Positions 1-31,617 of a stretch of DNA of 64,000 nt are shown in pieces (the first letter of the stretch is position 1; the number at the start of each line of letters is the position of its first letter). The notes below the pieces were generated by a model. The model searched no databases and was not told where the DNA came from. It worked only from the letters and a program-made list of their open reading frames with translations. Source of the stretch: Girardia tigrina (lineage: Eukaryota); NCBI GenBank assembly GCA_001938485.1, contig MQRK01245143.1:2971-66970 (forward strand), written 5' to 3'. A program made the position numbers and the translations under genes.

Positions 1-497
1 TACACTAACTGAAATTAATAAATAAAAATGGTAGAGTCAAAATAATGTAGGCGGCAGTTAAACGATTTAGAAAAATATATCAAAAAAACGACATAACATT
101 TGGGTACCCCTAATAAATACTTTACTTAATAACTCTAAATTTTAAATCTTTTTTTTCTCTTAAAAATAAATGGAACTCGAACTTTATAATCAAGTAAAGT
201 AAATCTTGGAAATCAAGAAGCTTTAGAATTAAAACTGAAAGAATATAATAAATGTAACTATGCAACGAAAGATGCTATTGGAAAACAAAACATGGTTGAT
301 GCTTTTTTATTAAGAGATGTATGTGGTAGATTAACAAATACTCTTGCATATTTAGATAATGAATTGAAATTAAGGAAGGTGAAATAGCTGAGATGAAAGA
401 ATTAATCTCAGTACCTGATCTGGAAAAGATTCAAAAGATTTCAGAAATTAAAAGGGAAAAACCTGTTGTTGTAAACAGTGATAAAATTAAAGAACGT

Positions 498-689
498 TTA
501 CTCAGAAGAATGAAAGAAGCTGGACAATTTTATTCTAAGCAAATAAAAAACTAAAAATAAAACTACTATGAATAGTACAACACTTATTATTTTAAAGAAA
601 AATATTTTATTATTTAATTGTATTGAATATTTATCAAAAATCTCTAAGACTCTATTAAACTCAGAATTTATTGCATTTATTGTTTTCAT
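498..689 (-). CDS. small single-pass membrane protein (63 aa), unknown function
   Basis: Intact ORF head-to-head with the ATPase, with one hydrophobic run (IISVVLFIVVLFLVFYLL). Could be a chance ORF in AT-rich DNA. Confidence 0.35.
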   Translation of the reverse strand: MKTINAINSEFNRVLEIFDKYSIQLNNKIFFFKIISVVLFIVVLFLVFYLLRIKLSSFFHSSE

Positions 690-707
690 CTTTTTTTAAA
701 TAAAAAT

Positions 708-1195
708 ATGACTTTTAACCCAGTTTTTAATATAAATAAAATAAAATTTAACCATCATCCTAACTTACCAAGTTGTTTCAGAATGTTAATTGTTGGATCT
801 TCTGGATGTGGAAAAACAAATTTATTGTTAAGAATGTTACCATTAGACAATTTTCTTGATTATGATAACTTAATAATTTTCAGTAAAACACTATCTCAAC
901 CAGAATATCAGATAGTGTTTCATGGTTTTGAAAATAAATTATCTAAAAAATCTATAAGATATATTTTTGAAAATCAGGAAGAATTATTCAAAGTAGCAGA
1001 AAAATCTATAGAAGAAGTTGTCAAGCAATATAGTTTACAAAATCCTGAAAATAATAATATTAGTATCAAGTTTTATGAAAACGTTAATGATGTAATTCCT
1101 CCAGAGAAATTACCTAAAAATAAAAAAATCTAATAATTTTCGATAATTGTATTAATGAAAAGAATCAAAATATAATGGAAAAATATTTTACAAGA
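708..1195 (+). pseudogene. A32-like (FtsK/HerA) DNA packaging ATPase, frameshifted and truncated
   Basis: Walker A FRMLIVGSSGCGKTNLL. After a frameshift at the A-run near 1125 it reads Walker B-like NLIIFDNC, then NIMEKYFTR, stopping just before the expected GRH motif. Confidence 0.8.
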
Positions 1196-2520
1196 TGTCG
1201 TGTTCTCTTCTCTCGACAACATTTTCGTGAACTCAGAGCCCCCATCCGTTTTTTGAGTTCAACGGCAACTCCAATATATCATTTACATTCCTGTATACTC
1301 ATTTACACCAATGAGGAACGGACGCGTCGCCTCCGCACACATCAACAAATTGTGTGGGCTTCGGAGCGCCTTCGGGCTCGAACCAGTAACGAGGATGGCC
1401 CGACTGGTAACTCAGCTTCTGAGGGGTAGACATTGTTTCATTCGGTGATTGTGAATTATACTCGTGAGTTATCATTTTAGATTATACAGGACAAAGAGAG
1501 CCTCAAGGAAGTAAACAAGGGTCTGCCCGCGTGCCCCTTGAATGCTGCGGTCAGCCTGTGTCACTTCCCCAAAGTTCTTCGCCCATTCAGAGACTCAATT
1601 AAGGTTCGTAATCGAAACTCATTTTGTATTTACACCTAATCTAATTTGACAATACTGACAATATTTTATTATACTTGACAATGTTTATCTGTGATTATAT
1701 TAATTGGTTATATCGATAATACTTTATGCTAATACTTTTTGCTATGGTGATCGCGACCGTTGCCATGGTAACCGAGACCGTATTATCGATATAACCAATT
1801 AATATAATCACAGATAAACATGTCTTTATGAGTTAACAAATCGAGAAATATTACACTGACATTTTGTGTCATTTAGATTTGCGATTTTGAATTTATTTAG
1901 TTGTTTTCTTTTATTACCACTCGGTCTTGTATGTTTTTACAATAGATAGACGACAAGTGTGGTTAAATAACAGTTTCACATATTGTCTATAAACTGATCC
2001 CATTAGTGACGAATCTAATTTAATTCAATTATTGCAATTTATTATTTTCAATTATATTAAGGCGATTGTCACAGAAGATACCATTAAGTCGAGACAGCAG
2101 ACTCTAGTACTAATATCTTGACTCTATTAAACGTTTATCCCCGATTGAACAGTCTATTTAACCACTCCATATTACTAAGGACACTATTTACAACTCAGAA
2201 ATTTATTTATAAGAGCAGCTTATTATAATAGAGCCACATAAATTCGAAGACTTTTGTTAAAATTGAATAAATAAGAAAGTGGTTAGATGAAACTAAGAAA
2301 TTCCCTTTTCACCATCTTTAATTGTTGTATTCTTCCATTATCATATTCAATTTAATAATTCAATAATCTCCCAATTTCATCTTTCAATTTACTAATTTAG
2401 CTTGACAATTTAATAATTTAATAAGAACAATAATATTCAATTTAATAATTCAAAGTAATTAATTAGGATTTCTTTAGCATCAACCTCAATTGTTAAATTC
2501 ATCTATTATTATTGTAATAT
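1196..2520. mobile_element. left part of a large LTR-like repeat, related to 15526-18702
   Basis: Starts TGTCG exactly where the ATPase breaks. Shares TGTC...AAC.ATTTT...CTCAGAGCC and AAGATACCAT...GAGAC blocks with 15526 onward. Right end approximate. Confidence 0.55.
1681..1821. repeat. 42-bp perfect inverted repeat (small foldback/MITE)
   Basis: 1681-1722 is the exact reverse complement of 1780-1821, with a 57-bp spacer. Confidence 0.9.
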
Positions 2521-2890
2521 CTCCCGATATTTTCGTATGTATTTTTATTATATTTCTTGTGCATCGTTGTTTGTTCATCGTCTATGGTGTGTTTGCGATC
2601 TTTCAACTCATGTTTGTGAAATGCGAGTTTCGAGGGATAGGTTCACCAGCTTTAAAAATGGGCCCAGCACCCGGGAGCGACTTGTCCATAGGGGCTTGTT
2701 ATGCGGTGATTGCGTATCTTGTTTCGATTCGAGAGTGGTGAGCGAGGGTGTTGTCCGTGGATCGAGGCACCTCCACGACCTGCTCACTGAGAAATTAGCA
2801 TTGAAAAATACGAAGACTCGCGGGAAAATTAAAGAGAAGGTACAAAAGGACTTCAAATTGGAACATGAAACACCAGAGACGAGGAATACC

Positions 2891-3417
2891 TGGGAAATAT
2901 TCATAAGACTCCCGACGGAGTATTAAAAACCAGACGTTTCACGGAACCAATTACCGGTAAAGAATTTCGAGACAAGGTGCAACAGGACATAGAACACGAA
3001 TTCTATCTGTCCATCAACGGTCAAATAATTGAAGATGGTGCAATTATTCCGGCGAACTCGATAGTTGATGTCAAATTTCGGCTAAGAGTAGGGAATGAAA
3101 ATGATGACATAAACGACGAAAAACCTGAAACGCAGTGGGAAGAAGGAAATGATCAGAAAATGAAATTGAAAATGCAGTTAACAAGGATTCAAATTCAGGC
3201 CTTGGATGAGCTCTGGATCAAGGATGATGAGAGAAGGAAATGTGAAGAATATGAATCCGAATTCAAAAAGTTTGTCAAGAGATATGAAGACCTCGTAATC
3301 TTGGGGAAGGAGTTAGACTATAAACAAGAAGCAGAAAAATTATCAAAAGAAAAAGACGAGTCAAGGAGAAATACAAATTTGATGTTTATGAAATTTATGT
3401 TGGTTTGTGAGAATTGA
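2891..3417 (+). pseudogene. ubiquitin-like domain fused to an acidic/coiled-coil region
   Basis: With one frameshift near 2905 it reads WEIFI-KTPDGVLKT...FRDKVQQD...FYLSINGQIIEDG...SIVDVKFRLRVG, following the ubiquitin pattern and ending in an LRLRGG-like motif. An E/K-rich tail follows. Confidence 0.5.
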
Positions 3418-3514
3418 TTGTTCGAAATAATAAAAAATTGTAAAATAAATTTTGGCACGGAGATTTTTTTGTTTAATTTGAGGTAAATGGTGAATTTTAC
3501 GAAAAGGGCATCGT

Positions 3515-3760
3515 TGGTCAGAAAATCGAAGAATTTTTCAGTCGCTCTTGATCGTTATAATAAAATTATCGAACTTGATCAAAAAAATTGCACGTTTTAT
3601 ACTAACGTTGTGCTGAACGTTTCGAGAGAGGAGAATATGCGCAATGTATTGTAGTGTGTGATAAATCCGTTGGTCGGACGTGAAAATCAGGTTGATTATA
3701 AATTATTCGCCAAAACCGGTTCAAGAGCGCGGAATGCTCATTTAAAATTAGATGATCTAA
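3515..3760 (+). pseudogene. STIP1: STIP1/Hop (STI1) TPR2A fragment
   Basis: Frameshifted translation KSKNFSVALDRYNKIIELDQKNCTFYTNV..FERGEYAQCIVVCDKSV..GRENQVDYKLFAKTGSRARNAHLK parallels Hop TPR2A (KKDFDTALKHY...[20 protein letters not shown]). Not in the ORF track. Confidence 0.8.
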
Positions 3761-3941
3761 TTTTGATATATACTTGAATCGAACTCCGAATTTAAACTGT
3801 TCACATCTCTTTCCTTCTCACCCCAGGTGGATCAAAAAAACTTCATAAATATCGCAAAACAATTATTATATCCTCGTCCATTATTTCGATTAATTCCTCT
3901 GTAATTATTTCTACCATTCTGCTATGAATTATTATTATTTC

Positions 3942-3997
<56 letters not shown>

Positions 3998-4107
3998 TCC
4001 ATCATCTCAAAGTAACTACACCACACTCTGTCAATGTCGATCGAACAATTCGTTATTATTTCCTTTGTAATTATTTCTACCATTCTGGTATGAATTATTA
4101 TTATTTC

Positions 4108-4155
<48 letters not shown>

Positions 4156-4471
4156 AAAGCAATTTGAAAAATATTTATCGGAACACCATGTTCCAGACAC
4201 CGTTAAAAAATTAACGAAATGTTCGATCGACATTGACAGAGTGTGGTGTAGTTACTTTGAGATGATGGAGAATGAGTGCTTGTCACAGTTATTTGAATCG
4301 GAAGACGGGGCTGGAACGGCGAGCCGCAGAGATCTGGCGATCGAGATGAGCGAGTAAGAGAGCGAGGGTGATGGTGGAGAGATTACGTTGTGTTTCTCCC
4401 CCCCCATGTCCCGGAAACACTGATTTCCCAACCCCGGGACGCCACCATCACGGTACGCCCGCTCTGGCGCC

Positions 4472-4544
<73 letters not shown>

Positions 4545-4725
4545 GAAATAATAATAATTCATAGCAGAATGGTAGAAATAATTACAGAGGAATTAATCGA
4601 AATAATGGACGAGGATATAATAATTGTTTTGCGATATTTATGAAGTTTTATGATCCATCTGGAGTGAGAAGGAAAGAGATGTGAACAGTTTAAATTCGGA
4701 GTTCGATTCAAGTATATATCAAAAT
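3760..4725. repeat. nested inverted duplications with (AAT)n/(ATT)n microsatellites
   Basis: 3760-3995 is inverted to 4472-4725, and 3994-4055 is inverted to 4212-4273. 4057-4153 is a direct partial copy of the left arm. Confidence 0.9.
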
Positions 4726-4984
4726 AAAGGGGGTAGATATGGGAAGAGTTATCAAATGCCAAAGACACGAAATATTGTGCTTCGGAAAATGATTTTTGTT
4801 TGAAAAAATGAATTTACGTGCATTATTTGAAGCTGTGATTGCGGTGAATATATATCGTCATTGAGTTTATTTATTACTTATTATTTATCCCAAGCTATCG
4901 CAGCAGTCTATGATGATCAAATTGGGGATATTATCAATAGTTATGACGGTACCAGCGACTTCTCGGAGTGGATTTCCTAATTTA

Positions 4985-5380
4985 TTCTAAAATGGTCGAA
5001 ATTAATGGTCGAAGTCGTGTAAACGGGATAACGTCCTTCAAGAAGTGAGTGGTGAGATGACAAAGAGGCAGGTGTTTTCGTGGTGTGGTCAAACAACTGG
5101 GCATTTTCCTGTTGCTGGATGGTTAAGACCCGCGTGTAGTCTGATGAAGCGAATCTTGATCGAGCTGAAGTGCGATGATAAGATAGATGAAACAAGTGTT
5201 GGAATGTTGATGCATATTCAGATGCGTTTGAATGAATGTGATTTAGTGGGTGGAGTGTGGAGTATTCCGAAGTCAAAAATGGGCCGCGTATGGTGTGATG
5301 CAAGTAGCCTCGCGTTCGGTGTATGTTTGGAAGTAGATCATATCATTGTAGAAGATAATTGCTGGTTACGGAATAAATGT
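4985..5380 (+). pseudogene. LTR-retrotransposon RT connection/RNase H fragment
   Basis: WCGQTTGHFPVAGWLRPACS and VWCDASSLAFGVCLEV motifs. Same family as 45790-47580. Confidence 0.75.
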
Positions 5381-5513
5381 TGGTGTTAGAGAGGGCGCAT
5401 CATGGTTGCGGCGTTCCGGGGTTGGGGGTGGACTGCGGGACGCAGGGGGAAATAAATCGAAGCTCACCCTGCTCTTTCTTCTGCAATTCGAACTCATCGA
5501 CCTCCAAATCCAA

Positions 5514-5915
5514 TCACTTCTTCATTTCATCTGATTTGATTTGTAATTGTTTTAACATTTCATCGTGTTCCGGTCCGCATCCGTGCTCATAGATGATTTT
5601 CTTCAACACGTCCTTCTCGTCTTTATCGTTAGCCGGTAGTCTGTAAACTTTGACATGATCGACTCTCAATGTCCAGCCTCTTCTTTGATCTTGATAGCAA
5701 ATGAAACAAAATCCCTTCGATCGAGCGGTGCGTCGGTCGCGATTGAGATTCAAATTGACTATTTCTCCATATTGAGAAAAAAAACAAGTGATATCACCCT
5801 CGAAATATTCGTATCTCAATCCGCCAACGTAGAACCAACAAATCTCATTTTATTTATCGTGCCATTAACCTATGGAATTTACGATTCCGTATTTCAATTC
5901 GGTTTCAGTATTCAT
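5514..5915 (-). pseudogene. RBMX2: RBMX2/Snu17 RRM pseudogene fragment
   Basis: WFYVGGLRYEYFEGDITCFFSQYGEIVNLNLNRDRRTARSKGFCFICYQDQR..TLRVDHV. There are stops upstream and a deletion of the STILAVDN segment. Confidence 0.85.
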
Positions 5916-6791
5916 TAAAATTTATTTTGTTGTCGAATTTAAAAATTACGCCTCAAAAATTTTTTATTCAATTAACCTACAAAATTTTATAATTGTGATC
6001 AAGCACACAAATATAAATTATACCACACAAATTTTCACGCCATATTTATTAAAAGATCAAGACCAATGAATTCTTTTATTTTTCTTTCAAATTTCATCTT
6101 TTTTCGAATCGCGCAAAAAACCTCTCAATCACTTTTTCGCAGTAAATTGAAAATCAACCATTTACAACAATAATTTCATTGAAGCGTTTAAACAAACGCA
6201 ATTTTTTTAACTTATTCAACAATAATAATCAATTCGATAATTTTTCCGATAATTAATTTTTTTCTATAATTGATTTTTTTCGTTTCTTTAATTATTATTG
6301 TTTTTATTTTTTTAAATAAAAATTACACACAGAAAATAAAAATTGACCACTTAAAATACATATCAAAGCTAATTCAAAACAATTTATCACAATTTCTGTT
6401 TAGTTCCAAGTACCAAATCAATTCATTAATTTCGATGTGGAAGAATCATTGACACCGAATTGCGAGACATCTTCGTTCATATTAATTGATACTTCATTGA
6501 AATTAGAATTCAATAATTTGATTTGAATTTTTAAATTTCGATATTTTTCACTAATTTTGACTAGAAATTCCGATAAATCATCTTCGAACATTTTTTATCG
6601 ACAGACAAAGATAAATTTAACATTCTATTTTTGAAAATTTCAAATAATATTTTGATTTTTGTGATGGAACCTCGATGAAATTGGTAACTTAAAAGATGAA
6701 AAAAAGATATTATTAATAAAAATTAGACTTCAAAGAGAAAAAGAACTTCAGATCGGAGCGATCAAAGGTAGACCTACAAATGAGTCAATTA

Positions 6792-8141
6792 TTAGGTTGT
6801 TGCATAAGTTCCCGCCGTTTTTTAAACATTTATTTTCAAAGAAATCAAAGAATTTTAACAACCAAAATAATGACTCAGTTAATTATATATTTAATGAAAT
6901 CATAAAATTTTAACAGCAAAAATAATAACACTTCAATTAATTATGTACTCTCCTTCATTGTTCACTACTTCTTCCCATCTTTCCACCAGTTTGTTAATTC
7001 CATTTCGCCAGAAATACTTAGGTCGAGTCTTGAAGAAGTTGTTGAGCCAATTCTCAAGATGATCCTGATTTTCGAAGCTAAGACCCTTCATTTCATTTGA
7101 AAGGCATCGGAAGAGATGGTAATTCGTCGGGTCGAGGTCTGGGGAATAGGGAGGATGTTGAAGGACCTCCCAACCGAGCTCTTGGAGTGCCATCTTGACA
7201 GTTTTTTGCGGTGTGTTGTCGAGCATTGTCATGGAAGAGGATCACCTGGCCTTGTCGATCCGGTCTTTTTTGTTGAATTGCCTCATTGACTTGATGTAAT
7301 TGGGCTTAATAGAGATTCTTTTCTACTGCCATGTTCTTTCCAAGCATTTTCCTAGTGAATTAGACCTTTCTAATCCCACCATACGCAAATCATTGTCTTC
7401 ATCGGGTGCAGGTCTTTCTTGATCTTGGGCTTAGGCTTCTCTCCAGGACTCACCCACTCTTTTCTTTGCTTCATATTCACATAGAGGCACCATTTCTCGT
7501 CTCCAGTGACGATTCTGTATAAGAAACGGTACCTGTGGCCATGGCTTCCTTGGTGTCAAGCGAGATTTTGAGCATCAATGGAAAGTCGCTTATCCTTCTG
7601 TTTTGGGGTAAGTTCGTGCGGGACCCAAGCTCCAAGCTTTTGAGTGAAACCCATCGACTGAAGATAGCGTGAAATTGTCGCAAAATCACAATTCATCGTT
7701 TCGGCAAATTTTCTGCATGTCTGGCGGCCATCTTCCTTCAAAAGATCCCCAAGTTGGTCCTCGACCATCTCAACTGATCTTCCGGAACGAGGAGCGTCGT
7801 TGAGGTCGAATTTATCGTGTTTGAACCTAGCATAACCAATCCCGAGCAGTTCTCTCAGCTATAGCGTCCTCTACATACACGGCACAAATATCTCTGGTAG
7901 CTTCACTCGCTTTTTGACCTTGATTAAAGGCGAAAAGAAGGACGTGTCGAAAATGCGATTTTTTGTCGACTTGACAATCCATTTGACGGTTCTAAAAAAA
8001 GACAAAAAAATAATATTAGCAAAAACGATTACTTTAATCGTGTAGAGCATAGCACAGGCTTTCTAATGGTATATAACACTGCCAAAAATCAAAAAATTCT
8101 TTGTAGACAAATAGTTTCATGTAACGACGAGAACAACCCAA
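6792..8141 (-). mobile_element. mariner transposon, decayed (transposase 7982-6933)
   Basis: TA flanks. TIR TTAGGTTGTTGCATAAG, with the other end partly deleted. Motifs WVPHEL and HPPYSPDL, with frameshifts. Confidence 0.93.
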
Positions 8142-8350
8142 TATAACAGTTTATTATATTGAGGAATTTTATGATATAAATGATTTTAATGAATTTACTG
8201 ATGATTTACAAAAAGTTGAAATAAAAAAGGAAGAAAATATGTTGCACTATCAAAACATTCCCGATGTAGATATAAATGTTAATTTAATAAGTAAAAGTGT
8301 GTCAAAAAGAAGTAAAAATTTTTGTACTAAAGTAATAAAAAAATGAATCT

Positions 8351-9147
8351 TTGAAAGATAACAAAATTGATGATGGTAAAAAATCTAAATATAATTCGAA
8401 AATGTGGTGGTTATCATTAATAATGATTTTATTCTTATTTATATCTCCAACGATATCTTTAGTAACGTATGATTGTTCACAAACAGAACTGGGCAAAATA
8501 TATTCATTAATGGATGTCTTAGAATGTGCTAAAGCTTACCCATTACAAATTAAAGAAGAGAAAAATGTTTTATATCATTTGTTTCAAGAATCAGGATTTA
8601 GAAGAGCAGAAGTTCGACAGTGTATAGTCAAACGTGCTACTTATGTTTTTCATTGTGTAAAAAGGAGTCACTCTTCTCTTATTAAAATAGACGCTATACC
8701 GAGACCTGTTGATATTCTACCAGAAAATTGTGAAGCAGCATTTCAAACAAAACAACTAAAATTGATTTCACTTTAACTTTAACTGCCAAAGTTGGATATA
8801 TAACAAGAGAATCTGTATTTCGAAATGGAGTAATGGATCCGGATGGAGAGTGCAAAGGAGAATCTGTAAAATTAGGAAATAAAATAGTAGATAAAATTAT
8901 GGTCTCAGAGGAATATCAAACAGAATTGAGAGAATTTGAAGGAATTTTTGATTTATTTTGATTTTTTGAAGGCATTTTTACAGGGAAATTACAGTCCCAT
9001 CCATTTTGTAATTATGGAACTACAAGCTGTCAAACAGGAGAATCTGTATTATTATACTCAGTTAATTAAAAAGATTGTAATTTTGCCTTTCTGAAATCAG
9101 CAGAATTTATTGAAGCTCAAGGCATTCAAATACAAGAAAGACCAGAT
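8351..9147 (+). pseudogene. viral envelope glycoprotein ectodomain, chuvirus-G-like / class III fusogen-like, truncated
   Basis: Signal-like MWWLSLIMILFLFISPTISL, then VTYDCS..YSLMDVLEC, C..FHCVKRSHSS and ENCEAAF. After a frameshift: GVMDPDGECKG, HPFCNYGTTSCQTGES, KDCN. Cysteine spacing recalled from chuvirus-like glycoproteins; not confirmed by search. Confidence 0.65.
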
Positions 9148-9159
9148 ATGTTAAAACCG

Positions 9160-12100
9160 CAGTGTTTTCTCTATCACTTTATAAGTCCTTCATATTTATC
9201 TTTACTCTTTATCCCCGTTTCCTCCTTGACTAGTACTTCATCTCCGATTTCTAAATTTCGGGTTGTTGTTTCTTCTTTATCTTTCTCTTACTGTAACTTT
9301 ATATCTGGAGTACGCCATCCTTCTCTGTATATTTTCTTTCCAGATATGATTTCTGTCGGACTTTTACCTATAGTTTTCTGAAAAGTTGCATTTAAGGTAA
9401 ACTCTATCTCTGGTAACAATTCCTCCCAGTCTGAACTTGATTTCGTTTGTAAAGATGCAATTAGATATTCTCTTATGGACCAAAACTGTCTTTCTACTAT
9501 ACCATTTGAGTTGTGGTGGTATGGTCTTGAGTAACACATCTGTATGTTCATTGGTTTAATGTTCATTTGTTTAATTATTTTAAATTCAAATGTTTTTCCT
9601 CAGTTTGTGTGTTATTTCTTTAGGTTCTCAAAACTTAAAATCCATTTTTTTTCATTATTGTATCTTTCATTGTTATTTCATCTTGTTTACTAACAGCTGC
9701 TAATGAAATGTATCTGCTGAATTGATTGATGATTGCCACAATATATTTTTTTCTTTTTTTATATCTCTTTTAACGGGTCACATACATCTATTTATATTTT
9801 TTCAAATGGCTCGTTTGCGTTTAATATCATCCGTTCTTCGTTCGTAGCTACTGTTACTGTGTTACTTCTTTGGCACGCTTCACATCGTTCAATAACTTCT
9901 TTTAGTGTTTCGTTGCGTTTGTTCATGTCGTATTTGTCTGCGATATATTTATTAATTTCTCTGACCCCGCGTGTGATAATAGTGTATGTGTTTGTTTAAG
10001 TATTTCTTCTCTCTCTTCTTCAGCTATCCAAATCTTTCCCTTGTTCGTCCTCGTTCCGTCATTTGTAAGGTTTTTATCTGTTTCTGATATTATGCTTTTC
10101 TTTATTCCTTCGACATCTCCCTGCTGGCATTTAGAACTGGCTGTTGTATCCACGGTGTTTATCCTCCGAGTCTTGATCTTTTGTGTTTTTGCATCTTCAT
10201 GTGCCATCAGGCATTGTGTACATGTATCACATGTGTTCTACGATAGCATATCTGCGTTCGAATGTTCAATTCCCTTGTGGTATTCTAGCTGTATATCTAG
10301 ACTTGATAAGTAGTTTATTCATGTCTTAAATTGTGCGGTTATCAGTTTTTTTGTCTTCAGCATGAATTTAATCGCCTTATGGTCTGTTCTTATCCTAAAT
10401 CGTTTTTCATACAATTAATGATTGAAATGTTGACAAAAGTAATATATTTCCAACAGTTCTTTCTTCGTTATACAATACCACTTTTCATGATTACTCATCG
10501 AGTTTGAGCCGTATGCGATAACTCTCTCGTAATTATTTTTGTCTTTTTGTGAAAGTACTGCTCCAATGGTATCAAAACTAGCGTCGGTATCCAGGATAAA
10601 TTCTTTCTCAAAGTTTGGGAACCCCAGAATTGGTGGTGTTGTCAAAGCTTTCTTCACAACTGTATTACTAAATGTATAAAAACATTTCAAATACATTCCA
10701 GAATCGTGCATATTGATAAATTGTTGTCTGTTGATTAAAATTCTTCTTTAAAATCAGAACAAAACATTTAAATTGATTCCAAATAGAATTTCATCAACAG
10801 CACAATATTCCACATTTGCATGTAGAAGTATGCATAATGTGGATATATGGATATTTAGCAAACGCTAAATTACACGACTCCGTCAATAACAGTTTATTTT
10901 TGTTCAATTCACATAGTTGTTCCAAAGTTTTAGCTTTTGTTGCGTAGTTTTTGCGAATCTTCTGTAAAAATTACAAAAATTAATTAATTATTATAAACAA
11001 ATAATTAATAATAATTAATACCCAGGAAGCTTCTTAGATTCTTTACACATTTCGGTTTTTCGAATGACTTTATAGTTTATAGTTTTGATGGGTCTATCTG
11101 AATACACTTTTCATTAATTATATGTCCCAAAAACTTGACCTCTGTTTTTAAAATTTGACATTTCTCAGGGTTGATTCTTAAACCTGCCTTTCCAATTTGA
11201 TCTAGTACTCTATCTAGGATTTCTAAATGCTGTTCTAATGACTTTGAAAAGATCAAAATATCATCTAGATACACTACAGTTCTTTCTATGTCTCCTAGTA
11301 TTTTCGTCATCAGCTCCTGGAACGTTCTTGGGGCAACTGCTATGCCAAAAGGCATCCTATTAAAACAGAACTGTCCCATTTTAGCTGAAAATGCAGTCTT
11401 TAGTTTTGATTCCTCCTATAGTTCGACTTGGTAATATGCAGGCAAACAGAAATCAATCAATGTAGAATATCGGGATCCATGTAGGCTGTCCTTAATTTCA
11501 ATAATATTTGGCATCGGGAACGCTTGCCTCTCCGTGACTAGATTCAATTGCATAAGATCTAGGCAAATTCTAACATCATCGGTGTATTCTAAAGAGAATT
11601 GTACTTCTTTATGACATTGTTTTTCCACAAGTTCTTTATAGTCTCATCCATTTTCCCTTCCAGAATAATCGGTTGCCTATGTGATTTTAGATTTATCGAC
11701 AGTCTTCTTGTGTTTATCTTATGTTTTATCATTGTTGTACATCCAACATTCCATTTTTCCGCCATAAAAACGCCTTGATGTTTTTTTACTATTTCAAGAA
11801 CTTTTAATTTACCTGCAATCTGCATTACACTCTTGGCTCTGTGAAATCGTTCATCATTTGTTACCAATCGTTCAAACCTAGCTTCTGGATTACATACCTT
11901 GTAAAATTGTTCGTTTGCAGCCTCTTCTTTCTTCTTGCACCGCAATTCAATTCCGAACGTTTTATGAAATTCAATACCTCCTATTATTTCTGATTTAATG
12001 TCAGTGACTACGATAAAAGTTGTATTTTTCAATTTTCCTCTAATTTCTACGTCTATTGATATTTTACCAATACATTCCAGGTGACTGTTGTTTGCACAAT

Positions 12101-14030
12101 GCAGTTTGATGTCTGGTTTTTCCAACTTTACATTTTCTAATTTATCGAAAATTGACTTGTTAATTACGTTTACCCTTGCTCCTGTGTCTAATAAACAATC
12201 TTCCCTGATGTGTTGTATCTTTATTTTTATGCTTGTTCGACTTTGCATTTATCGAACAAAATATTTTCTACTCTCCATTCATCTATGGTTAGGATCTTTG
12301 TTTCCTCATTATTACTTCTGTCTTCAACCGCTCCCACTAAACTTTATCTGATCTCATCTCCGAATACTTCTATTTTTATGAATCTTCGAACTTTCTCATT
12401 TGTATCAACTTATACCTCTTTAATATTTTTAATATCATCTTTCACTATACATATAATGTCTGTGAAGTTATTTTACTATAAATAGCCATATTTTTGGAGT
12501 CGTTTCTATCTTTTAATTTATTACCACGACTGACTCCAGTTCTGTCGAGGCTCTATCTTTTGGGTGCTGTTTCTCCATCACTGATTCTTCATATTCTTCT
12601 TCAATGTTCGCTACAAATCTTCTATTATCTCCTCGTCTTTTGTCTTCTCTATCTCTATATTGTCGTTGATTGTAACCCCTTCTTTGGTAATTATTACTTG
12701 CTGATCTTTGTTGGTTTCTTCTTTCGTATAATTTTATGTAACATTCATCTTCCCAGTGACCTCTATTTTTGCACCTTTTGCATTCAATATTCAGACAGTT
12801 TCTCCTTGCATGCCTCTGCTAACCACCGCCATAGCATCTAGTCTGTTTCCTTTCTGTACAGTTTTTTATCATATGTGCCTCCATTCCCCATCCGTAACAT
12901 TTCCTCGGTTCTTGTTGTCTACTTGTTCTGCTCGAGTACTGGTTTCTTTCCCATTTTCGATCATTAGTATATCTATTGTTCTCTGTATCTCCCACTCTTG
13001 TTTATTTATGTTCAAATCTGCTGTTATTTCTAGTCACCGCATCCTTTTAGTTCTTGAATCTGTTCTGTGTCTCATTATCTCTAACTACGTATATCTGTTC
13101 TTCTACATTTTTGATCTCGTGTATCGTCTTGATCTTCTCTTTTATTTGTTCCACTCTTTTTACTTTATTCATCCACACTTCTTTCTTGATATCCATGTCA
13201 TCATAACATTTCATCAATAATGTTTTCCTTATGCTCTCTTTTGTCATGATATGTTGCATGATTCTTTTTGCCATCTTTTCTATTTTTTCGAAAAAAAACT
13301 TCCGATATGTCATCTTTCATCCTATAGCGGCACGCTTCTGACGAATCCTCAAATAGAGAGGATATCCTAACAAATGCTTTTCGAAGCCGAATTTTATATC
13401 CACTTATTGACTTGTCCCCGGTCTTATACTTTTCCTTTATGTCTCTGTCCAACAGACACAAGACAATGACTTCATGTTTCGGTTTTGCCACTCCCGCGAT
13501 TTGGAAGAATGTTTCACATTCTTCTATGAACGTCTCCACATTGTCATCTTTTCTTAATTTTTCAGGTAGTAACTGATTCGTGGAGTTGTTCTAAGTAGCG
13601 TTAGTCGCCAGATAAGTAGCGTTTACGCCACTTTCTTTATCATTAGACTCAGGATTCATAATTTAACACCAAAATTTTATTAATGACAATAATTCCCATA
13701 ATTAAAAAAAATTCTTTTTAATTCACTTATTTCGTCAAAATTAATCTATTAAATTTTTCTTCGAATTCAATTTTTAAAATTTAATAAATTTTAAAACCTT
13801 AGATTAATAAAATAATTTTTAAATTAAAACTAAAAATTTTATACAAAAAATAATTAATTTAAATTTACCGTAAGCCTTAACAAAATTATTTCTTAAAATA
13901 TTATAAAGTTTAATCCATTTATTATTTCTTTTAAAATTTATTTAAAAACTTATTTTAAAATTTATTTTAAATTCTTTCAAGACTTTTATTAAAATATATC
14001 AATTGTTATAACTGTAAATATTTTTTTATT
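9160..14030 (-). mobile_element. Ty3/Gypsy retrotransposon, decayed, 3' LTR lost
   Basis: 5' LTR from 13611 up, PBS TGGCGAC at 13610-13604, gag, protease LLDTGA, RT YLDD (11077-11379), RNase H ILDTDAS, integrase PYHHNSNGIVER. Confidence 0.92.
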
Positions 14031-30663: not shown

Positions 30664-31617
30664 ATGAATTTTATTGAACCTAATAACTCAATAATGAAAT
30701 CTTTTCACCAGTTAATTCAGAATCATTGGATGAACGCTTTACAAGTAATTCCACCAGTAACCACTAGATATTCTCCCTTTTCATCCAGCACTGGTAGTTT
30801 TACTTCTCCCGGCAAGAGCGAGATTTCAGACCAAGACGAACCATTAAATCTTTCTCTTAAGTATTCAGACTCCCAAAGTCTCAATCAACATAACAATATA
30901 TCACAAGCAAGCCCATCTATATTTAATCAATATGGCATTGTATCTCCTCTCCCTTTATCAACCCATGTTCCTATAATAATGCCTCATATATTTCAAAGTC
31001 TATTTGCCACAAGACCAATTCTACCAAATATTTCAAAATCGAGATCAATGGCTGAATATTTTCCAATGCAGGTGAATAATTCAGATATATGTCAAAAGCA
31101 GCGCAGAAAATCCACACCTGTTAAAATGAAGAAATCCCGTTCATTTAAATGCAATCAATGCCGAATGATATTTACATGCTTAGCCAGTCTCTCGGAACAC
31201 ACCCAAAATATTCATGGAGGTTATAAATGTCATATTTGCGATACCAGTTTCACCCAGAGATCTAATTTGCAAAGGCACGCTTTGAGGCACGTTGGATTCA
31301 AACCTTATAAATGTGGAGTTTGTTCAAAAGAATATTATAGAAAAGATCATTTAATTCGTCATATATCCTTTAATCATCCAATGGTGAATCCTAAAGAAAA
31401 TATAATTCAAAGATTATCATCTTCTGAGAGTTTAAATTTTATAGATTGTCAAACAGAAGGGGAGCCCAGTAATGAAAATGATGACATTGTTCCGTTAAAA
31501 CCAATTTCTGGTTGTTCCAGTGAAATATCAAATGAAGATCAGAATTCCTTAGAAGAGGAAAATATATTTTTAAAAATTGAGACTTCAGAAGGAATGGATG
31601 TAGATATTTTAAATTAG
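30664..31617 (+). CDS. zfp-1: flatworm ZFP-1-family three-finger C2H2 transcription factor
   Basis: Intact 317-aa ORF with three C2H2 fingers carrying QRSNLQR, a GFKPY linker and RKDHLIR (ZFP-1 family signatures), plus a PLNLS CtBP-type motif. Begins immediately after a splice acceptor. Exact paralog not determined. Confidence 0.85.
   Translation: MNFIEPNNSIMKSFHQLIQNHWMNALQVIPPVTTRYSPFSSSTGSFTSPGKSEISDQDEPLNLSLKYSDSQSLNQHNNISQASPSIFNQYGIVSPLPLSTHVPIIMPHIFQSLFATRPILPNISKSRSMAEYFPMQVNNSDICQKQRRKSTPVKMKKSRSFKCNQCRMIFTCLASLSEHTQNIHGGYKCHICDTSFTQRSNLQRHALRHVGFKPYKCGVCSKEYYRKDHLIRHISFNHPMVNPKENIIQRLSSSESLNFIDCQTEGEPSNENDDIVPLKPISGCSSEISNEDQNSLEEENIFLKIETSEGMDVDILN

Follow-up and report, generated by a model that had tools for sequence, protein, structure and literature searches.

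An inactive fragment in Girardia tigrina of a high-copy Ty3/gypsy family with a predicted class III fusogen gene between gag and pol

The stretch of Girardia tigrina DNA analysed here (the window, 64,000 nucleotides) carries at positions 8142-9162 what is very probably a fragment, no longer active, of a Ty3/gypsy LTR family of high copy number, designated family A, in which a predicted class III fusogen gene lies in frame between gag and pol. The family was likely expressed as a single polyprotein threaded through the membrane, and enveloped particles were likely its means of spread. The fragment itself is inactive and does nothing. An env-bearing gag-env-pol layout is already in print, so that the fragment adds little and the fuller copies of the family matter more.

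The decayed fragment and its junctions

When fetched family copies were compared with window positions 1-12000, they aligned over 8140-9162, delimiting a decayed family-A fragment of approximately 1 kb (8142..9162, plus strand). Its first part (8142..8401, plus strand) is the distal end of the family-A Gag-Env spacer and was 82% identical to residues 375-439 of the L034 copy. This is followed by an internal signal-like hydrophobic stretch preceding Env, recognised from the sequence (8402..8467, plus strand; hydropathy of 2.34 in the L028 copy), and by the N-terminal part of a predicted class III fusogen ectodomain of the chuvirus G/herpes gB type (8468..9162, plus strand). The cysteine pattern YDCS, SLMDVLEC, FHC, SH and DGECKG was found from 8468 on, and approximately 225 N-terminal residues of the approximately 530 of the Env ectodomain are kept before the fragment ends at 9162. 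Pfam PF24664 (Monjiviricetes_fusion) matched window positions 8339-8773 with 56.9 bits (cut-off 27 bits; E 1.3e-15), and the Env of the fragment was 84-94% identical to natural family copies when compared piece by piece. The frame is damaged by a slip in an A-run near 8340, by a shift near 8765 after which the ectodomain runs on in another frame, by a stop-carrying insertion near 8960 and by a stop at 9067. The fragment is without LTRs, gag, pol and the Env anchor. The initial annotation had noted the signal-like stretch followed by a Cys-patterned ectodomain, the continuation of the latter through a frameshift and the slip near 8340, and all of these were seen again here.

At 9162 the fragment is ended by an inverted, unrelated Ty3/gypsy remnant (9162..13600, minus strand), which matches another locus (L062) from 9162 on and whose RT was 45% identical to the family-A RT over 58 aa. 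This remnant is therefore not the fragment's own pol. Elsewhere in the window, a long inverted repeat without mismatches, hairpin-like and containing AAT tracts, was observed at 3760-4725, and a C2H2 zinc-finger gene in a single ORF, apparently an intact host gene, at 30664-31614 (plus strand).

On its other side the fragment adjoins a decayed mariner transposon (6792..8141, minus strand), which contains transposase pieces and matched 14 fetched copies, themselves with terminal repeats, at 88-97%. It has TA at both sides, in agreement with the TA pointed out in the initial annotation. Beyond the mariner are 120 bp that belong to another gypsy family with env, here called family B, starting just past the Gag zinc knuckle (6672..6791, plus strand). 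All of the 14 fetched loci matched 6672/6674-6772/6795 at 80-85% and then ran on into family-B sequence, and the translation of 6672..6791 was identical to the L110 ORF of family B at 28 of 40 aa (70%, E 7e-14). No match was found between this left flank and family A (best E 0.41). None of the fetched family-A copies matched the window at 6668-6795, their match covering 8140-9162 only; the window's left flank ahead of ITVYY was present in 0 of 30 family-A copy rows (26 distinct contigs), and 29 of these rows carry a different common sequence at this place. Because the left flank matches family B and not family A, the upstream frame reads, at the level of sequence, as a chimera of two env-bearing families joined by the mariner, and the earlier proposal that removal of the mariner restores one original frame is contradicted. 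The junction would most simply have arisen by recombination between two mariners in different elements, or by a misjoin through the repeat. None of the contigs of runs X1, X2, X3 and X12 spans it.

The search with bases 6672-6791 gave 362 family-B candidates. Family B (L110:5980-8766, L112 and L117) has a gag-env-pol layout with an Asn-rich Gag, one knuckle and an AT-hook-like stretch, and its ORF order is gag, knuckle, spacer, a weak BCL2-like stretch, signal and env; the weak matches in this family were to BCL2-like (E 0.19) and ankyrin (E 0.034) sequences. Next to the family-B piece, window positions 5376-6676 hold a multi-copy repeat (651 candidates) into which 8 of 14 fetched copies extend. 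Within it lies an RRM piece (5514-5849, minus strand; Pfam RRM_1 E 1.3e-10), which we take to resemble RBMX2/Snu17, and the repeat may have captured splicing-factor sequence.

Layout of family A and its predicted fusogen

In the genome (G000), 2,305 first-look candidates for family A were obtained, and all 150 that were scored matched, with 82-100% identity. Pieced together across natural copies, the gene order begins with the gag capsid and three zinc knuckles. The spacer and a signal-like stretch then lead into Env with its hydrophobic anchor, and protease, RT, RNase H and integrase follow, after which come a second signal-like stretch, three FN3 stretches, a transmembrane stretch, a stop and then a separate exonuclease ORF. 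Domain order was read on single contigs L028, L047 and L046. After removal of duplicates and of pairs containing N gaps, the frame in natural copies was open at the spacer-Env junction in 11/20, at Env-protease in 2/4, at RNase H-integrase in 1/1 and at integrase-FN3 in 2/4; for the knuckle-spacer, protease-RT and FN3-anchor junctions the basis is ORFs of individual copies and not row counts. The ORF1 length of approximately 3,300 aa was summed from pieces. Intact copies and their flanks had been proposed for a search: the flanks were recovered as gag and pol with LTRs, and among the copies examined, in a fragmented and gapped assembly, none was open from gag to stop, each junction of the polyprotein being open in one copy or another.

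One LTR-flanked copy, C225110, measured approximately 16 kb from LTR to LTR, N gaps included, and is itself frameshifted. Its LTR pair was 98.1% identical over 793 columns, with ends TGTT/AACA and a 4-bp target duplication (GAAG). A purine tract precedes the 3' LTR, and the primer site, 10 bases past the end of the 5' LTR, has a 10-base match to the tRNA-Trp 3' end. Among solved structures the family-A RT was closest to the Ty3 RT (E 2.6e-40). Because the RT is Ty3-like, the pol order is protease-RT-RNase H-integrase and the LTRs carry a target duplication, family A is a Ty3/gypsy LTR retrotransposon with env in the middle of its polyprotein.

The env-bearing mobile element anticipated in the initial annotation is borne out by gag and pol flanking the fusogen inside LTRs. 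Its placing of env as the last part of the polyprotein has to be given up, as the copies continue from env into protease and RT. The reading of the window as one such element, BEL/Pao- or Maverick-like and only interrupted by the mariner, is highly improbable. In its favour, the reading frames at either side of the mariner meet by chance, the two flanks are of env-bearing elements that point the same way, and a P-loop ATPase piece at 648-1133 (plus strand; Pfam Pox_A32 E 7.8e-4, below the cut-off) suggests a Polinton-like remnant; against this stand the family-B left flank that no family-A copy row carries, the protease following env in frame, the Ty3-like RT with no BEL-type family among the Pfam matches, and the LTRs with target duplication. 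Maverick/Polinton PolB, capsid and ATPase were looked for beside the fusogen and were not in the fetched copies, whose flanks are gag and pol.

The Gag-Env spacer of family A has 440 residues, with ubiquitin-like-looking domains in fuller copies, and Atlas gave leads (0.81-0.82, leads only) to ubiquitin/SUMO families. A third, sister family (L029:7565-9901, minus strand) adjoins the LTR-flanked copy; its env was approximately 72% identical over the first 166 residues, and its spacer matched Pfam ubiquitin at E 2.2e-5, below the cut-off. The contigs of four runs guessed to be RNA covered 11, 12, 18 and 10 of 30 family bins, a coverage that does not demonstrate expression.

When the natural ectodomain of L028 was used as query, 1,316 relatives were found at E up to 0.001. 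The Env structure model built from 115 sequences had a pLDDT of 90 and a long central helix (296-343), and 14 Cys were at least 90% conserved in the Env alignment. The Foldseek comparison with chuvirus G and herpes gB that had been suggested earlier gave matches of the family model to both. Among solved structures all listed PDB matches were herpes gB (best E 2.2e-14, TM approximately 0.4), and among viral proteins the best matches were chu-like virus glycoproteins (G; E 3.3e-35, TM up to 0.75). These folds and the PF24664 match agree with the original designation, and Env is predicted to be a chuvirus-G-like class III fusogen. The dN/dS of Env was 0.15-0.34 in 5/5 copy pairs, which share one reference and are not independent, and 0.18 against the sister family. 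Since two hydrophobic stretches lie near the end of Env, its topology is a putative one. In 9 of 13 scanned relatives env was ahead of protease, and in the other 4 no protease was seen.

The nearest folds being chuvirus glycoproteins, the sequence might be taken for an endogenised chuvirus gene, or for an ordinary spliced host secreted protein. The viral G proteins among the top structure matches were 16-19% identical, compared to 82-88% for the retroelement copies, and both possibilities, to which a negligible probability was given, are refuted by the LTR-flanked copy C225110, where gag and pol flank the gene inside LTRs.

Two observations were made on relatives. A gag-env-pol-type gypsy polyprotein (P0012) is labelled as a Flavobacteriaceae metagenome-bin protein, and its DNA is probably of animal origin, misplaced among bacterial sequence. 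In P0157, P0009 and P0011 there are several aspartic-protease-like stretches per polyprotein, up to six in P0157.

A second membrane protein, an exonuclease ORF and a possible entry route

In the L130 copy, integrase, signal, FN3, anchor and stop were found in one 819-aa frame. Pfam FN3 matched with 27.9 bits (cut-off 25 bits), in three stretches after integrase. Atlas features for the FN3 module gave 0.94 with 173 shared, at a low recognition score, and the fold model from 7 near-identical copies had a pLDDT of only 32.6. Candidates numbered 1,454 for FN3 and 1,152 for the exonuclease ORF. Because the junction between anchor and exonuclease was open in 0/4 copies, the exonuclease is regarded as a separate ORF. 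It has approximately 540 residues, a Pfam RNase_T match of 32.7 bits and closest similarity to ISG20/ISG20L2 (E 7e-8), and in the alignment it has E at the third motif position and His in the last motif. Both the FN3 protein and the exonuclease ORF lie inside the C225110 LTR pair. The dN/dS was 0.08-0.23 in 21/21 pairs for FN3-anchor and 0.06-0.48 in 17/17 pairs for the exonuclease ORF, the pairs of each set likewise sharing one reference, and these values were similar to those of RT (0.11-0.39, 3 pairs). The FN3-anchor protein of L043, L052 and L130 ends in S-V-V or S-V-M; the S-V-V end presumably resembles a class I PDZ-binding end.

Signal-like and anchor-like stretches were also found at the end of 4/4 distant relatives in which the integrase end could be recognised and a long tail follows, and for this reason a second surface protein may be an overlooked feature of the whole lineage. 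When the FN3 module was compared with the tails of relatives, the profile probability was at most 0.4% in 3/3; Pfam FN3 was absent from 3/3 tails, and further searches with the FN3 module gave no relatives. No relevant report of FN3 or ISG20-type cargo in elements of this kind came up in a literature search, and this cargo may be annotated in Grohme 2018, in Repbase or in the full ORF files behind PMC13524379. The combination of FN3-anchor and exonuclease is possibly undescribed.

In the mechanism proposed here, the two internal signals would put Env and the FN3 domains in the ER lumen, with Gag and Pol remaining cytosolic, and signal peptidase and the element protease would cleave the polyprotein. 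Particles would bud bearing Env, which would, rather probably, fuse with a neighbouring cell. The FN3 protein might act as an attachment or trigger partner of Env, a step proposed tentatively, and the exonuclease could, speculatively, trim or clear nucleic acid, either the element's own or sensor-triggering. We infer that the family is potentially infectious.

Herpes gB requires partner glycoproteins, and the entry route of gB-carrying errantiviruses is stated as unknown in PMC13524379. By analogy with gD and gH-gL for herpes gB, the polyprotein of gag-env-pol elements such as family A might be cut to yield two glycoproteins that act together in entry, namely the gB-type fusogen encoded ahead of pol and, as its receptor-binding or triggering partner, a type I membrane protein with FN3 domains encoded past integrase; this is a possibility of rather low probability. 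The FN3 protein, a membrane protein that is conserved, under selection and encoded in that polyprotein, would be a concrete candidate for a gB partner, and one amenable to study in flatworms as a tractable model.

Alternatively, mobility could be strictly intracellular, with Env and the FN3 protein used to tether membranes, to fuse cells with one another or to manipulate the host, and no free infectious particles being formed. A single polyprotein would give Env as abundant as Pol, unlike in other gypsy elements, where env has an ORF to itself (PMC6431247), the cargo of Burro suggests host manipulation (PMC6431247), and transmission outside Drosophila is called unknown in PMC13524379. This alternative is considered unlikely, as the full class III fold (predicted), the 14 conserved Cys and the low dN/dS fit a working fusogen, and spread as enveloped particles is preferred.

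Comparison with described env-bearing elements

The initial annotation knew of no such element in planarians; Burro elements (PMC6431247, 2019) and Schmidtea errantiviruses (PMC13524379, 2026) had already been published. Chary and Hayashi (2026; PMC13524379) describe GAG-ENV-POL elements with a gB-type env from flatworms, nine in number, of which six are from Schmidtea, and Schmidtea mediterranea errantiviruses 1-6 are given with 1-215 copies each. Family A is like these six in being a multi-copy Ty3/gypsy family with env between gag and pol and a gB-type fold (PMC13524379). From RRAKVREC on, the Smed_errantivirus_1 env row was identical to copy L030 at 42 of 55 residues, counted by eye (PMC13524379). 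This closeness of env to Schmidtea elements points to a planarian-type host. No LTR or tRNA is given for the six Smed elements in the text of PMC13524379, whereas family A has LTRs, a target duplication and a Trp-like primer site, and its LTRs and primer site fill blanks in the published planarian entries. The words fibronectin, exonuclease, ubiquitin and Burro are absent from the main text of PMC13524379.

Mosquito elements carrying chuvirus G (Dezordi et al. 2020, as cited in PMC13524379) have a glycoprotein of the same family as family-A Env. However, they belong to the BEL/Pao superfamily (PMC13524379) and the family-A RT is Ty3-like. The rotifer LTR elements Juno and Vesta have a DEDDy exonuclease as ORF3 after pol, with DEED replacing DEDD (PMC5408684, Rodriguez et al. 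2017). The family-A exonuclease, of the DEDD family, likewise has its own ORF behind pol and an E as third motif residue. Unlike the Juno/Vesta protein (PMC5408684), it is closest to ISG20/ISG20L2, has His in the last motif and co-occurs with env.

The giant gypsy elements of planarians, Burro and GYPSM1, have an env that is homologous to mononegavirus fusion proteins and lies in one frame with the gag before it and the pol after it (PMC6431247, Arkhipova and Yushenova 2019). BURRO1 is de-silenced by smedwi-2 RNAi (PMC8532177), and Burro receives only a mention in PMC11410931. Like Burro, family A has a polyprotein with Gag, CCHC knuckles, a SUMO/ubiquitin-like motif, in-frame env, a dUTPase-like linker position and accessory cargo (PMC6431247). 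In contrast, Burro exceeds 30 kb with an ORF1 of 4,873 aa (PMC6431247), and a Burro element in the strict sense would have over 25-30 kb and an ORF1 of approximately 4,900-5,100 aa, compared to approximately 16 kb and approximately 3,300 aa for family A. Burro carries MATH, BCL2, BIR and ankyrin motifs (PMC6431247), in place of which family A has FN3-anchor and exonuclease. Because no Pfam match to MATH, BCL2, BIR or ankyrin was found in the family-A pieces, family A is Burro-like and not Burro proper. Family B, with its BCL2-like and ankyrin hints, is nearer to classic Burro than family A.
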